A DNA stretch of 64,000 bases from an uncultured Bacilli bacterium (GTDB taxonomy: Bacteria; Bacillota_I; Bacilli_A; RF39; UBA660): the NCBI GenBank assembly GCA_949025205.1, contig CARMXJ010000001.1:12980-76979 (forward strand). The letters are read 5' to 3'. Position numbers: made by a program. Positions 45,001 to 51,000 of the stretch are shown piece by piece (positions within the stretch are counted from its first letter, which is position 1; each line of letters opens with the position of its first letter).

Positions 45001-48000
45001 ATTAAAATTACTGCTTCTTATGAAATAAGAGAAGGAAATAGTCAAAGAAGTACACTAAGCAAAGAAGAACAAGCTGTAACGAGGAAAATTGATAGTATGA
45101 TATGGGCGTCTAAATTTTATGATTCTATTATCACATTATCAAAAGGACTTACAAAGGATGAGGCAATATATTTAACACATGCCCTTATGGCAGGTAAATC
45201 ACATGAAAGTATTGCTGAAAAAATTGGAATAAGTGTTAGATCAATACAGCCAATCAAGAAAAGTTGCTTAGTAAAGAGCTGGATAGCATTAGAAACATTG
45301 TATGAGGAAGAGAGATAGTCTTCTTTTTTTTGTGTGAGGGGGTGAAAAAATGAGCGATATTGTAAAAGTAACAGTACCAATTACTCTAAAGGAGCAAATT
45401 CGTGATCGAGCTGAAAAGTTAGGAATGACAACTCCAGAGTATTTGAGAACTTTAGCAAGTTTAGATGTTACGACACAGAACTATCAGGAAATGGCAATTT
45501 GTGTTAATCTTTTATATAATCAAATTCTCGATTATCAAAAGACACTTGATATTCATTGTATGCCAGTTCAAGAAGTTCCTATCGTAAAGATTGAAGAACT
45601 TATTTAAAGGGTGCTGACAAAATACTAATAATGCGATATAATCTAAGTATATTTAAGAAGGAGGAATTTTTGTGATAAACAAAAGCAAAAAGCCTCTTGT
45701 AATTATTAGCCTTTTAGTACTAGTAGCCATTATTAGTATATCAGTTATCTTTTATACAAGAGAAACTAAAGATAAAGAACTTTTAAAGGTAGATAAAAAT
45801 TTATCTACTGAAAAAACAGAATTTAATAATGAGGAACAAGATAATATAAACAAAGTAGATGATAGTAAAAATTCAAATGTTATAGAAGAAAAGAAAGACA
45901 ACGAACAAGAATCAAAAACAGAAAATATTTCTATTCCAGAAAAGGAAACTGTAACCAATCAAAATCAAACGAAAACAAATGAAAGTAAAAAAGATAATAC
46001 GCAAAATAATACTTCTAAAAAAGAGGAAATTGTTTCTAAACAAGAGAATCCAACTCTACCAATAGTAGAACAACCCAAAGCATGTACTCCAAAGAAGTTT
46101 ACAATGAGTTTTGTAAGAGCTGATTTTTCATCATTTTCTCAATGTCAAGAAATGGGAGAAAAGTATAGAAAAGGTGGATACAGATATTTTTGCGATAATT
46201 ATCAGGATGATTGTGGTGATACATATTATATGTTAAGTTTAACAAAACCTAATAGTAGTGAAGAATTAGATTATCACAACATCCCATTGCCAGAGATACC
46301 TAACGAATAGGTATTTTTTTAATGGTTAAAAGAAGGGGGAAAATTGAGAGGAAAATTAAAATATTTATTATTTTTATTAATTGCAGTAGCAGTATGTCCT
46401 ACTTTTAATGTAAAAGCTCAAACATATACTGCACAATTTAATGACAAATACCAATGGATTCCCAATACCTTTATTAACAAAACTAAAGGTAGTAATACAA
46501 AATATCAACAACTTTCCATTATTGCAAGAAAGAGCGATAATCAGTTTGTTTATTGTATTGAACCGGGAACTCCATTAGATTCTAATGAAACTTATGTAGG
46601 ACAAGATTACGATCAATCCTATGTAGCAAATATGACGCAAGCACAATGGAGAAGAATTCAGTTGCTCGCGTATTATGGATATGGTTATAGTGATAGCGAA
46701 GTAAATCATAATGATATAAAATGGTATAGTGTTACTCAATACATGATTTGGAAAACTGTACCACATGGATATGATATTTACTTTACTGATAGTTTAAATG
46801 GAAATAGAATTACAAAATATACGAATGAAATAGCAGAGATGGAAGATTTATTAAATAGACATTATGCTACACCAGATTTTGGTGCTTCAAGTTATCAAAT
46901 GGCTATTGGTAACACCTTAAAATTAACAGATAAAAGTGGAGTTTTATCAAAATACGAAGTATCAAACAATTCTTATGTTAGTTCAAGTAAAAGTGGAAAT
47001 GATTTATATATAACTGCTAATGCAGTTGGAAATACTACACTTTCTTTAACTAAAAGAGATGTGAAATATTCTCATCCAACAATTGTTTATGTTAAGCCAG
47101 GTACTCAAGATATTGTACAAGCTGGTAGTTACGATCCTATAGATGTTAATTTAAATCTTAATATATTAGGTGGTAGAATTTCTATTACAAAAAAGGATTC
47201 ATGCGGATCAGTTCCAAATGATGCTTCAATAGAAGGGGCAATTTATGGAATATACGATGTTAATGGAAATAAAGTAACAGAAATTACAACTGATGCAAAT
47301 GGTGAAGCAACATCAGGATATCTTCCAAGTTTAGGAAAATTCTATGTTCAAGAAATTAAAGCAAGTAACAATTATTTATTAGATTCTACAAGATATGAAG
47401 TAGTATTAACAGCAGAAAATACTGCTGCAAATGTTCCTATACATATTGATGTAAAAGAAAATAGAAAAGCAAAAATTTCTTTAGTTAAAACTGATTCAAA
47501 AACAGGAAATAGAGCTCAGGGGGATGCAACTTTAAAGGGTGCCGTGTACGATATATTCGATGTAAATGGTAATAGAGTTGGTTCTATGACAACAGATGAA
47601 AATGGACGAGCTATAAGTGGATATCTTCCAGATATAGGAACTTATACTGTTAAAGAGGTAAAACCATCACAAGGTTATAATTTAGATCCTACAGTTTATA
47701 CAATTATTGTAGAAGAAGATAATACTTGTAATTATATTCCAGTAGAATCAAAAGAAAGAGTTATAACAAATACTTATGAATTTACTAAATTATATGCAAA
47801 AGCAGATACTGGTTTTATGACACCAGAAGTTGGAGCTACATTTGCAATCTATAATTCGAGAGATGAAAAGATTGCAGAGTTTATTACAGATTCTGATGGT
47901 AAATTTAAAACAACTTTACCTTATGGAACATATACACTTCGACAATTAACTAGTACAAATAATTTTAATAAAGTGGAGGATTATCATTTTGAAATCAAAG

Positions 48001-51000
48001 AACAAATTGATGATACTATTTATAAAAATATATCGAATTCAGAAATAACTGCAAAACTAAAAGTTGTTAAGATTGATTCTGAAACAAATGAAGTTATAAA
48101 AAGAAGTGGTATTAAATTCAAAATATTTAATATCGATAAAAATGAATATGTATGTCAAAATATAACATATCCAACTTCTCAAAAAATCTGTGTATTTGAA
48201 ACTGATAAAAATGGCGAATTTATCACTCCTTATGAATTATCAAGTGGAAGATATAGATTAGAAGAAGTAGATCAAGTAATTGATGGATACTTATGGAATA
48301 CAAATTCTCATCCTTTTGAAATTGGTGAAAATATGGAAGTAATTACTGATTCAGAATATGGAATTATTTTTGAAACCTTATTTTCTAATACAAGAGTAGA
48401 AGGTGAATTTAATCTTCATAAAAATGGTGAAAAGGTTATTGTATCAAATGGTAAAATGACATTTGTAAAGACAGATTTAAAAGGTATTGTATTTGGAATC
48501 TATGCCCGTGAAGATATCATTCACAATGGCAAAACAATTTATCACAAAGGAGATTTAGTAACAACCATCGAAACTGATTCAAATGGAGATGCAAAATATT
48601 CAAAAATGTATCTTGGTAAATATTTTGCAAAGGAATTAAAAACTTTACCAAATTATAAATTAGATATAAAAGAATATGATTTTGAACTAAAATATAAAGA
48701 TCAATATACACCAGTTGTAAAAGCAATGAAAGAAATAGATAATTTCTTAATTACTATTGATTATGATTTTATGAAAACAGATATGATTGATGATAAACCA
48801 ATTGAAGGTGCTTTAATTGAATTATATACAGAAAGTGGAGAACTTATTTATAGTGGATATACTGATAAAGAAGGTAAAATCAATTTTACTATTATTGATT
48901 CAGAAGGAAATGAGTTAAAAAATAAACTACCAATAGGACGCTATTATGTCTTAGAAAAAGAAGCACCAAATAATTACTTACTTAATGAAGATAAGATTTG
49001 GTTTGAAGTAACTGCAACGGATACAATTGTTAAATCTAATATGAAAGATAAAAGAGTAGAGGGAACTATCAAAATTCATAAAGATGGTGAAAAATATACT
49101 ATTTCAGATTTATGCGAAGATCCTTCAAAATGTTTTGTATATGAAACCGATGAAAATTTAGAAGGAATTAAGTTTGGCTTATATGCTCGTGAAGATATTA
49201 TTTTAAATAATATTATTAGATTTAAAGCTGGTGATTTAGTTGCTGAAGGTTATACAGATGAAAATGGTAACTTGATTTTTGACAAACTTTATCTTGGCAA
49301 ATACTTTGTAAAAGAACTTGAAACTAAAGATAAGTATGTTCTTGATATAAAAGAGTATGATTTTGAACTTGAATATGTTGATTCTAAAACTCCAATCATA
49401 GAAACTTCTTTTACTTTAAAGAATTATTTAATTAAGAGTAATTTAGAATTTACAAAAACAAGTATTTCAGATGGAAAACCATTACCTGAAACCTTAGTAG
49501 AAATTTATAATGAAAATGATGAACTAATTTTTAGTGGTCGTACAAATAAAGAAGGAAAAATTATCTTAAAAGATATTCCAGTTGGAAAATTCTATATTTT
49601 AGAAAAGGAAGCTCCAGAGTCTTATGTTGTAAATGATGAACCTATGTGGTTTGAGATAAAAGATAACGGAGAAATCGTAAAAGCCAATATGGAAGATGAA
49701 AAAATTAAATCTACAGTTATTATTCATAAAGTAGATCAAGATGGAAATGCTTTAGCAGGAGTAATTATAGGAATTTATGATTTGGATGGAAATCTAATTT
49801 ATGAAGGTACTACTGATCAAGATGGAAATATCGAATTAGAAATGGAATATGGAAAATACTATTGGCAAGAAATTTCAACTATTGATGGATATGTTATAAG
49901 TGATGAAAAAATTTACTTTGATGTTAGTGAAAATGGAGCAATTATCGAAGATACTTTAGTTAATATCGAAGTACCAAACACTTTATCTAATACTTATATC
50001 AATTTAATTGGTGGTTTAGTAATTCTTGTGGGAGCAGGATTTATCCTAATTTCTAATAGAAACAATAAAAAGAAACATTAATTTATAAAAGAATAAAGGG
50101 GTTTTAATATAGATTAAAAATGAAAGAATAGGAGGAAAAAATGAATAAATTTTGTGTTTTAGGACGTTTAACAAAAGATCCTGAAATTAAGGAATTAGAA
50201 AATGGTAATAAAGTAGCTAATATTACTCTTGCCATTGATAGAGACTATAAAGATAAAGATGGAAATAAAATTACTGATTTTCTTAATTATGCTTTATGGA
50301 ATAAAGATGCTGAAAGACTTGTAAAGTTATCTAGGAGTGGAGCATTGATTCAATTAGAAGGTTATTGTACTACAAAAGATGTTGAAACAAAAGATGGTTC
50401 AATTCCAGTTATGCAACCTATTGTTAATTTTTATAAGCATTTACAGAATGTAAAAACAAATGACAATGAAGTTGAACAAGCAGAAGAGATGACAAAATAA
50501 TGATTGATAGAGATAAAATATATACTTTAAATGAACTTATCAATAATATGTATAATTTAGATTTTAAATATTATGGTAATAATGATAATGGTAAATTGGA
50601 AGTTTATGTAAAAACGGATGTTGATAAAATGTCCGTTTTTTCATCTCTTAATGATGGTATGAGTAAAGAAGAATACCTAAAATTGAATGAAGAAGAAGCT
50701 CGTGAATTAAAGTTTATATTTGATAGGGAGGTCGAAGAAGTGGAATTAGATATTGTTGCTATCGTATTAAGAACTAGCGATGTAAATATACCTTCTACAA
50801 GATATTCTTTAGATACTCTTGATCGACTAACAAAAGAGCAAGATCAAGAAGATAGAAAAAATAAAGGAAAAGTGAAAGATGGTATTTGCTATCTCATTGT
50901 AGATAACAATACTGCATGTACTTTATATGATGGCATTTATACATTTGATAAGAACAACAATGGTCTTATAGAAGATTTAAAAGAGAAGTATGAATTAGAA

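Follow-up and report, generated by a model that had tools for sequence, protein, structure and literature searches.

The DNA described here is a 64-kb stretch (hereafter the window, G+C content 27%) from the gut; the bacterium, of low G+C content, is uncultured and belongs to the 'Bacilli/Mollicutes-like' group. It contains a gene for a large surface protein, lying immediately upstream of a set of type IV secretion system (T4SS) genes (Table 1). A first-pass annotation had described this gene as a 1245-residue open reading frame (ORF) with a signal peptide, and both are present, judging by an ORF check and by reading of the sequence. The N-terminus (MRGKLKYLLFLLIAVAVCPTFNVKA/QTY) has a basic start followed by a hydrophobic core (mean hydropathy 2.0), with residues V23 and A25 of the predicted signal peptide conserved in the family alignment. 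A 98% identical homologue (P0001) uses the same start codon. The identical sequence is encoded by 18 public contigs; these derive from several metagenome runs and include one NCBI metagenome-assembled genome (MAG), GCA_949879835.1. A megablast of the gene against the PLSDB plasmids returned no match, while tblastn with its thioester domain (TED) found only TEDs of 24-31% identity on plasmids, mostly enterococcal ones.

Table 1. Features of the adhesin gene and its neighbours. Positions are those of the window; residue numbers (aa) are those of the adhesin.
Feature	Position	Strand	Basis or remark
Two co-directional ORFs upstream of the adhesin, 178 aa (44782-45318) and 85 aa (45350-45607)	44782..45607	+	Possibly regulators
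212-aa ORF: N-terminal transmembrane helix, ~100-aa Glu/Lys/Asn/Gln-rich linker, small C-terminal domain with four Cys	45672..46310	+	
Shine-Dalgarno-like GAAGGGGG, strong ribosome-binding site, 4 nt 5' of the TTG	46332..46339	+	Sequence reading
Adhesin ORF, 1245 aa plus stop	46344..50081	+	TTG start
Predicted Sec signal peptide, aa 1-25, cleavage VKA/QTY	46344..46418	+	Sequence inspection
Class II TED, aa 26-275, head lobe plus inserted beta-sandwich (predicted)	46419..47168	+	
Cys71 codon (VYCIE), predicted thioester Cys	46554..46556	+	Aligns with SaTIE Cys296; fits [YFL]C-hydrophobic-hydrophilic
TQYMIW, aa 131-136, auxiliary TQXXΦW motif	46734..46751	+	Aligns with SaTIE ATQMLIW
Gln255 codon (GTQDIV), predicted thioester Gln, within KPGTQDIVQAGSYDP	47106..47108	+	Aligns with SaTIE
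Stalk, nine CnaB/SpaA Ig-like domains, aa 276-1209	47169..49970	+	Pfam and PDB matches
Added CnaB domain D2, relative to ~925-aa relatives	47463-47759	+	Insertion in alignment A1
Duplicated pair D7-D8, relative to ~925-aa relatives	49056-49703	+	D5/D7 52% and D6/D8 46% identical
VPNTL pentapeptide, aa 1210-1214, sortase-motif position	49971..49985	+	Family conservation
Hydrophobic helix, aa 1218-1236, and basic tail SNRNNKKKH, aa 1237-1245	49995..50078	+	
Single-stranded DNA-binding protein (SSB) gene, right after the adhesin	50141..50500	+	PF00436, 70 bits
Pilin-like	51105-51467	+	Pfam T4SS_pilin PF18895; NCBIfam Mbov_0395
VirB6-like, 553 aa, polytopic	51478-53139	+	pLS20_p028, MMCAP2_0566 and Mbov_0396 families
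VirB3-like, 87 aa	53152-53415	+	Weak match
VirB4, 820 aa	53434-55896	+	P-loop_TraG/AAA_10; Mbov_0397 'VirB4_plasma' 479 bits, cut-off 590
M23 peptidoglycan hydrolase	55896-56912	+	Pfam Peptidase_M23

The thioester domain proposed in the first-pass annotation is borne out by Pfam, whose TED family (PF08341) matches residues 69-160 at 36.5 bits against a cut-off of 22. When the whole adhesin was searched against NCBIfam, no model for a TED or an adhesin matched; the sub-threshold matches were spurious and arose from the immunoglobulin-like (Ig-like) repeats. A profile built from residues 26-290 and 18 diverse homologues (A2) matched a single TED among all PDB sequences, that of SaTIE (6fx6), at nearly full length and E = 1.9e-16. 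An AlphaFold2 model of the same residues (mean pLDDT 89.5, pTM 0.81) has as its top Foldseek matches in the PDB three class II TEDs: 6fx6 (E = 3e-13, TM 0.71/0.78), 6fwv (BaTIE) and 6fwy (EfmTIE86). [quoted passage not shown] Our confidence that this is a thioester-domain (TIE-type) protein is much higher than the overall figure that we give below for its proposed function.

Three motifs characterise TEDs of known structure: a cysteine motif ([YFL]C-hydrophobic-hydrophilic) on strand C; a weak motif around the bond-forming glutamine, on strand Q, which follows the beta-sandwich inserted in class II; and TQXXΦW on helix alpha-2, whose Gln and Trp lie beside the bond without taking part in it (PMC6194298). 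In the window protein, the cysteine sits in YCIEPG (residues 70-75), and the HMMER alignment places Gln255 opposite residue Q218 of the SaTIE chain, which is the bond-forming Gln467. Since Cys296 and Gln467 of SaTIE align with Cys71 and Gln255, and both residues are invariant, the predicted internal thioester is Cys71-Gln255. None of 145 distinct sequences of the family differs at Q132, W136 or Q255. The set was selected with a pattern that included Cys71, but this residue is also invariant in an independent alignment (A1). The 184 residues between the pair compare with 195 in BaTIE (Cys71-Gln266), 171 in SaTIE (Cys296-Gln467; PMC6194298) and 188 in the modelled pair of the pLS20 adhesin (68-256; PMC8092201). 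The first-pass annotation thus had the domain and the cysteine right and the glutamine wrong: it paired Cys71 with the Gln of VTQYMIW (Q132), a partner that the structure-based motif definitions and the SaTIE alignment rule out.

Behind the TED, Pfam SpaA (PF17802) matches nine stretches of the protein (E = 1e-114), and the PDB matches of the stalk are the CnaB domains of 6fwv, 7k1u and 4oq1 (BaTIE and collagen adhesins). A stalk of this kind, with at least eight repeats, had been predicted, and that part stands; the repeat size of about 120 residues does not, as the domains run from 90 to 125. Most of them carry the Lys/Glu/Asn pattern of isopeptide domains, and in several such positions are invariant in A1 (K576/E641/N682, K693/E764/N800, K811/E871), with Gln534 at the expected Glu in domain D3. 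Most relatives of the window protein have 829-927 residues. Across the wider family the length ranges from ~500 to ~1390 residues with the TED N-terminal throughout, and stalk length is therefore variable.

The C-terminus also agrees with what had been described: a hydrophobic segment (mean Kyte-Doolittle hydropathy 2.2 over residues 1220-1237), a tail ending in RNNKKKH and, in place of LPXTG, the pentapeptide VPNTL. TIGR01167, the model for LPXTG anchors, scores the last 61 residues at 15.6 bits against a cut-off of 15.9, with only model positions 8-34 (helix and tail) aligning, while a homologue's tail with VPNTG clears that cut-off at 26.5 bits. We scanned one genome per GTDB species, which gave 416 loci, and retrieved and analysed 80 of them. 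Nearly all of these 80 belong to MAGs of uncultured bacteria from the gut of rabbit, ruminants, mouse, human and chicken, labelled as Bacilli, Mollicutes, Tenericutes or Erysipelotrichaceae. The best 120 homologues all (120/120) have [VM]P[ND]T and a variable residue, after which come ~8-10 polar residues, then a helix and finally a tail rich in Lys; in these, in the 80 loci and in more distant representatives, [VIM]P[NDK]T-x is a hallmark. Complete tails from representatives of the TED subfamily at 50% identity (n = 68) comprise 47 with VPxT and two with LPxT, and 12 have Gly in fifth position. Such conservation rules out VPNTL as a chance string in front of a plain membrane anchor. The Heimdall-CTERM and LPxTATN models matched the adhesin C-terminus only insignificantly, and a literature search on VPNTG, VPXTG and VPNTL sorting motifs turned up nothing relevant beyond the VPDTG of pneumococcal RrgC.

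The gene had been placed in a transfer operon, which the T4SS genes directly downstream support; the order adhesin-(sortase)-SSB-pilin-VirB6-VirB3-VirB4-M23 is kept in ~40-46 related loci. It is not, however, the first gene of that cluster, as had been supposed. Three co-directional ORFs precede it, with gaps of 32-65 nt, so the adhesin lies near the head of the cluster rather than at it.

There is direct precedent for an adhesin of this kind in conjugation. Gene 34 of the Bacillus subtilis plasmid pLS20 encodes the class II TED adhesin TIEpLS20 (Gago-Cordoba et al., 2021; PMC8092201), which donors need for efficient conjugation, above all in liquid medium, and which is inactive as a C68S mutant; homologues occur in the conjugation operons of other plasmids (PMC8092201). 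Both TIEpLS20 and the window protein combine a secreted class II TED with an Ig-like stalk, and both genes lie early in a conjugation operon, upstream of the T4SS (that of TIEpLS20 at NC_015148 6477-8780). Their cysteine motifs are VYCID and VYCIE, their Cys-Gln spacings are both ~185-190 residues, and the VirB6-like protein of the window matches the pLS20_p028 family. Unlike the window protein, with its nine domains and complete sortase-type signal, TIEpLS20 has three stalk domains and neither an LPXTG-like motif nor a C-terminal helix; it has no sorting signal and acts independently of host sortases (PMC8092201). Direct homology between the two is only marginal by BLASTP and hhalign; the window adhesin nevertheless shares with TIEpLS20 its fold class, motifs and genomic role.

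Other known proteins resemble the window adhesin in part. SaTIE, BaTIE and EfmTIE86 (Miller et al., 2018; PMC6194298; 6fx6, 6fwv and 6fwy) have the same fold class, the same three motifs and the same layout of signal peptide, TED, CnaB domains and sorting signal, although the SaTIE TED is only ~16% identical to that of the window. They differ in having canonical LPXTG-type motifs (LPATG in BaTIE) instead of VPNTL, and the cited literature describes no transfer-operon membership for them. In Clostridium sordellii pCS1-1, the gene for a CnaB sortase substrate lies immediately upstream of the cst T4SS locus and the plasmid carries a sortase, SrtB (Vidor et al., 2018; PMC5770547). The likeness, drawn from the published description and not implying a TED, is that of a CnaB sortase substrate upstream of a Gram-positive T4SS on an element with its own sortase; there, however, the sortase gene is not adjacent to the adhesin gene, whereas the linked sortases of the window's family overlap the adhesin 3' end. 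PrgB of Enterococcus faecalis pCF10 is likewise a wall-anchored (LPXTG-type) adhesin encoded with a T4SS, and promotes mating aggregates in liquid (PMC8092201). It has instead a lectin-like polymer-adhesin domain that binds extracellular DNA and lipoteichoic acid, together with RGD motifs, and no thioester domain; conversely, a Pfam scan of the window adhesin found no PrgB-type (GbpC/AgI/II-like lectin) domain, only TED and Ig-like stalk families. Given the pLS20 and pCS1-1 precedents, a TED or CnaB adhesin on a Gram-positive T4SS element is of an established kind.

With a probability of roughly 70%, we read the window protein as a mating adhesin that serves the adjacent T4SS, is covalently reactive and is anchored in wall or membrane. 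The protein would be exported by Sec and lose its signal peptide, and its class II TED would form the internal Cys71-Gln255 thioester. A nucleophile on the surface of the partner, as a rule the amine of a Lys, would then react with this bond and so link the two cells covalently, while the nine CnaB/SpaA domains would act as a rigid stalk holding the tip far from the donor cell. VPNTL, the helix and the basic tail would retain the adhesin in the membrane until a sortase cut after Thr1213 and attached it to peptidoglycan. Its role would be the formation and stabilisation of mating pairs for the T4SS; by analogy with TIEpLS20, it may act as an aggregation or mating-pair factor. Bond formation, target, anchoring and the role in transfer are thus all steps that we infer.

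Several points weigh against this reading. The thioester is predicted from an alignment and a modelled fold. Sequence similarity to TIEpLS20 is low (BLASTP E = 0.001 and 24% identity over ~200 residues; hhalign probability 15%), and transfer of pCS1-1 hardly changed when its plasmid sortase was knocked out (PMC5770547). The window, whose end lies ~14 kb past the adhesin with the element continuing beyond position 64000, yielded neither a relaxase nor a coupling protein. Nor is there a sortase within 10 kb on either side of the adhesin (less at contig ends) in six members of its lineage (L001, L005, L007, L013, L088 and L089), and because neither these flanks nor the window hold one, sortase-dependent anchoring is unproven in this lineage. 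Finally, the targets of TED adhesins elsewhere include host proteins, fibrinogen among them.

This last point bears on another possibility, that the adhesin is cargo for gut colonisation, binding mucus or matrix proteins covalently in the manner of streptococcal TED adhesins and playing no part in DNA transfer. Characterised TEDs such as those of SfbI and Cpa do target host proteins (PMC6194298; PMC8092201), the hosts of the family are almost entirely gut MAGs, and stalk length varies as it does in host-facing 'periscope' adhesins. We nonetheless consider it improbable, for the adhesin keeps a fixed position between backbone and T4SS in the ~40-46 syntenic loci, even where VirB4 is only ~45% identical across lineages. 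The true cargo (erm, tet-like and ANT genes) lies elsewhere and is variable, and pLS20 shows directly that a TED adhesin can serve conjugation (PMC8092201).

The resistance genes themselves are worth describing. Just upstream of the backbone genes (LysR, NUDIX), the window encodes an Erm-type 23S rRNA adenine methyltransferase (39173-40084, + strand), scoring 269 bits with Erm(42) and 211.3 with the broad Erm model (cut-off 212). At the same position, a related, sortase-bearing locus (L091) has a tet(M)-like GTPase and an ANT adenylyltransferase. Because the two loci differ in this way, the elements evidently carry variable resistance cargo. The genes that follow in the window (40921-44465, + strand) encode a LysR regulator, a NUDIX hydrolase and a 628-residue protein with only a weak N-terminal Rossmann match (GFO_IDH_MocA). 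All three travel with the adhesin-T4SS module in the closest relatives, and LysR and NUDIX genes are also found upstream in the distant L091; they look like backbone, not cargo.

In most relatives, a sortase gene occupies the space between the adhesin and the SSB position. This ORF of ~205 residues overlaps the adhesin 3' end by 13-55 nt in 69 of the 80 loci, and its product combines an N-terminal helix with the motifs AGHSG and TLITC. The linked sortases match Pfam PF04203 at 62-93 bits and pass the generic NCBIfam sortase model only, falling under every class-specific cut-off; their nearest solved structure is Clostridium perfringens SrtD (4d70). When clustered, they form clades that co-vary with the fifth residue of the substrate motif: clade TLVTCENN goes with MPxT[FY], ITLITCISGT with VPNT[LS], TLITCKK with VPNT[GN], and TLITCRHNT with VPNT[ED] and sometimes G. 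As adhesin and sortase are linked and co-inherited, this pattern is not independent proof of specificity, but it does show that the fifth residue is held constant within lineages and is not free to vary.

The class assignment of these sortases also bears on whether the adhesin might be the tip subunit of a sortase-assembled pilus and not a wall-anchored monomer. Among the class models, they score best on those for class C (pilus) and class D, and a TED protein, Cpa, is indeed a pilus-tip adhesin (PMC8092201). Such a pilus would call for a second substrate with a sorting signal and a pilin-motif Lys, and none lies beside the adhesin in the window or the inspected loci. The sortases are themselves short (~205 residues), have an N-terminal helix only and stay under every class cut-off, and the nine-domain stalk already provides length. 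We regard a pilus tip as highly improbable.

Two features of the linked sortases stand out. Their His (in AGHSG) and Cys (in TLITC) are retained (for example L022:12750-13364, L035:12702-13337, L059:12414-13055 and L008:13764-14372), while at the position of the canonical catalytic Arg most have [K/R/N/Y]-Q-I-V-V, with the Gln invariant. Only the clade paired with MPxT[FY] keeps K-R-L-V-V, and the register at this position differs by one residue between the 4d70 and 2kw8 alignments. In one rabbit-gut MAG (L015:9983-13687), the adhesin, with IPKTL, a helix and a KRKQNKK tail, runs in frame into the sortase as a single ORF of 1235 residues; the fusion may be natural or may reflect an error of assembly or sequencing.

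The window itself lacks a sortase, as the first-pass annotation had observed: neither a TLxTC pattern search of the 64 kb nor a hidden Markov model (HMM) from 58 related sortases, run against all six-frame ORFs of at least 80 residues, found one. In all, 11 of the 80 loci have no sortase, but five of them say little, being cut by contig ends or uninformative for other reasons. Absence is clear in the window, in L001 (78% identical, with the same synteny), in L005, L007 and L013, and in L012, whose motif is LPQTG; two further homologues (P0007 and P0009) show the same sortase-less gene order. These loci represent one T4SS lineage, whose VirB4 proteins share 74-97% identity with each other and ~45% with those of the other loci, and in this lineage the SSB gene directly follows the adhesin. 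A 194-residue ORF (50500-51084) also characterises the lineage. We considered it as a divergent or replacement sortase and rejected it: it has no hydrophobic helix, scores -3.9 bits with the sortase HMM with filters off, and has a homologue that coexists with a sortase in L033.

The motif has outlived the enzyme. IEVPNT is identical in L001, L005, L007 and L013, whose flanking residues vary and whose adhesins are 34-78% identical to that of the window, and the adhesins of P0007 and P0009 retain VPNT. Conservation of IEVPNT at such overall identities indicates continued selection on the motif. The window tail (EVPNTLSNTYINLIGG) is also closely similar to that of a sortase-linked relative, L055 (EVPNTLNNDYINIAMIG). 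The dedicated sortase has thus been lost from this lineage while VPNT has been retained; and since VPNTx is family-wide and usually paired with a downstream sortase, the real oddity of the window is the loss of the sortase, not the motif.

Our reading is that the motif is still in use and that, the gene having been lost, the sortase must act in trans. The host or a co-resident sister element would supply the enzyme; failing that, the adhesin would stay anchored by its helix. In two MAGs, a sortase-less relative occurs beside a sortase-bearing sister element: L005 (VPNTG) occurs with L042 (VPNTG plus sortase), and L001 (VPNTL) with L009 (VPNTS plus sortase). Three MAGs each have two sortase-bearing elements, and in these the fifth residues of the two differ (D/F, E/G and L/G). 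These counts are small and depend on correct binning. Overall, we put the chances of sortase-dependent anchoring in the window lineage at about even.

Alternatively, the C-terminus in this lineage may go unprocessed, leaving a type I membrane protein that stays in place through its helix and basic tail, with VPNT kept through recent ancestry or a structural role. The missing sortase, both in the 64 kb and in the 10-kb flanks of the six relatives, is what this would predict; the TIGR01167 score falls just under the cut-off on helix and tail only, and TIEpLS20 functions with no sortase at all (PMC8092201). The preservation of IEVPNT and VPNT across divergent adhesins argues the other way, as does the co-residence in two MAGs of sister elements with a matching sortase, and we think an unprocessed C-terminus somewhat unlikely.

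A broader proposal is that [VIM]P[NDK]T-x and the overlapping sortase together serve conjugation adhesins as a private anchoring system. The sortase of each element lineage would be matched to the fifth residue of that lineage's motif (G, E/D, L/S, N or F/Y); most of these enzymes have a conserved Gln or Lys-Gln in place of the catalytic Arg. The window's lineage, having lost its enzyme, would depend on a matching sortase of a co-resident sister element or of the host. We offer this tentatively and consider it, as a whole, unlikely. In the literature searched, we found neither a VPNTx-type signal nor its pairing with an overlapping, class-unassigned sortase, nor the co-variation of sortase clade with fifth residue, nor the scale of the TED-adhesin family in uncultured gut Bacilli; a search linking RF39, conjugation and sortase returned no papers.

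The remaining genes of the module deserve mention. Of the three ORFs upstream of the adhesin, those of 178 and 85 residues are conserved in the closest relatives and have weak Sigma70_r4_2 and NikA-like matches, both under cut-off. The 212-residue ORF has no significant family match, but homologues directly precede the adhesin in 38 related loci, and its product is a candidate partner for the adhesin or a candidate surface component of the T4SS. The best promoter-like matches lie at 44533-44653 and 45614-45642, in the gaps before positions 44782 and 45672, although the promoter and terminator scan as a whole did not rise above chance. Downstream, the NCBIfam matches of the T4SS core (Mbov_0395, Mbov_0396/pLS20_p028 and Mbov_0397) all fall under the curated cut-offs. 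As the best of them are families from integrative and conjugative elements (ICEs) of Mycoplasma, they suggest a T4SS lineage common to the ICEs of wall-less Mollicutes and to walled relatives. An adhesin, a sortase and an M23 hydrolase are what the walled relatives have beyond the Mollicutes ICEs. Further downstream of the hydrolase gene, the window has a Toprim/CHC2 primase-like gene, and in L091 a PF03432 relaxase follows the hydrolase.

The left-hand two thirds of the window (positions 1-39000) carry accessory genes. By eye, the translations include two-component systems and Bce-type ABC transporters; Pfam adds VanZ, two RhuM-family genes, a YhcG nuclease and a C5 cytosine DNA methyltransferase (35419-36294), among others. 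The ORFs scanned in this region included no integrase, relaxase or sortase.

The A2 profile recovers 496 clusters at 50% identity (E <= 1e-30) and the 416 loci in GTDB species genomes. TED adhesins are thus regular components of T4SS elements in uncultured gut Bacilli, and the family of these elements is very large. Their resistance cargo includes an Erm-like methyltransferase here and, in a relative, tet-like and ANT genes. The interest lies mainly in the family-level sortase/signal system and in the loss of the sortase in this lineage, and less in the adhesin itself: the window gene can be recognised as a TIE adhesin, and its anchoring enzyme is to be sought elsewhere. If the proposed anchoring system is real, it would mean helper dependence between conjugative elements. 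The family also provides a natural series of matched sortase/signal pairs with residues other than glycine after the cleavage site, which could help in understanding and engineering sortase specificity.

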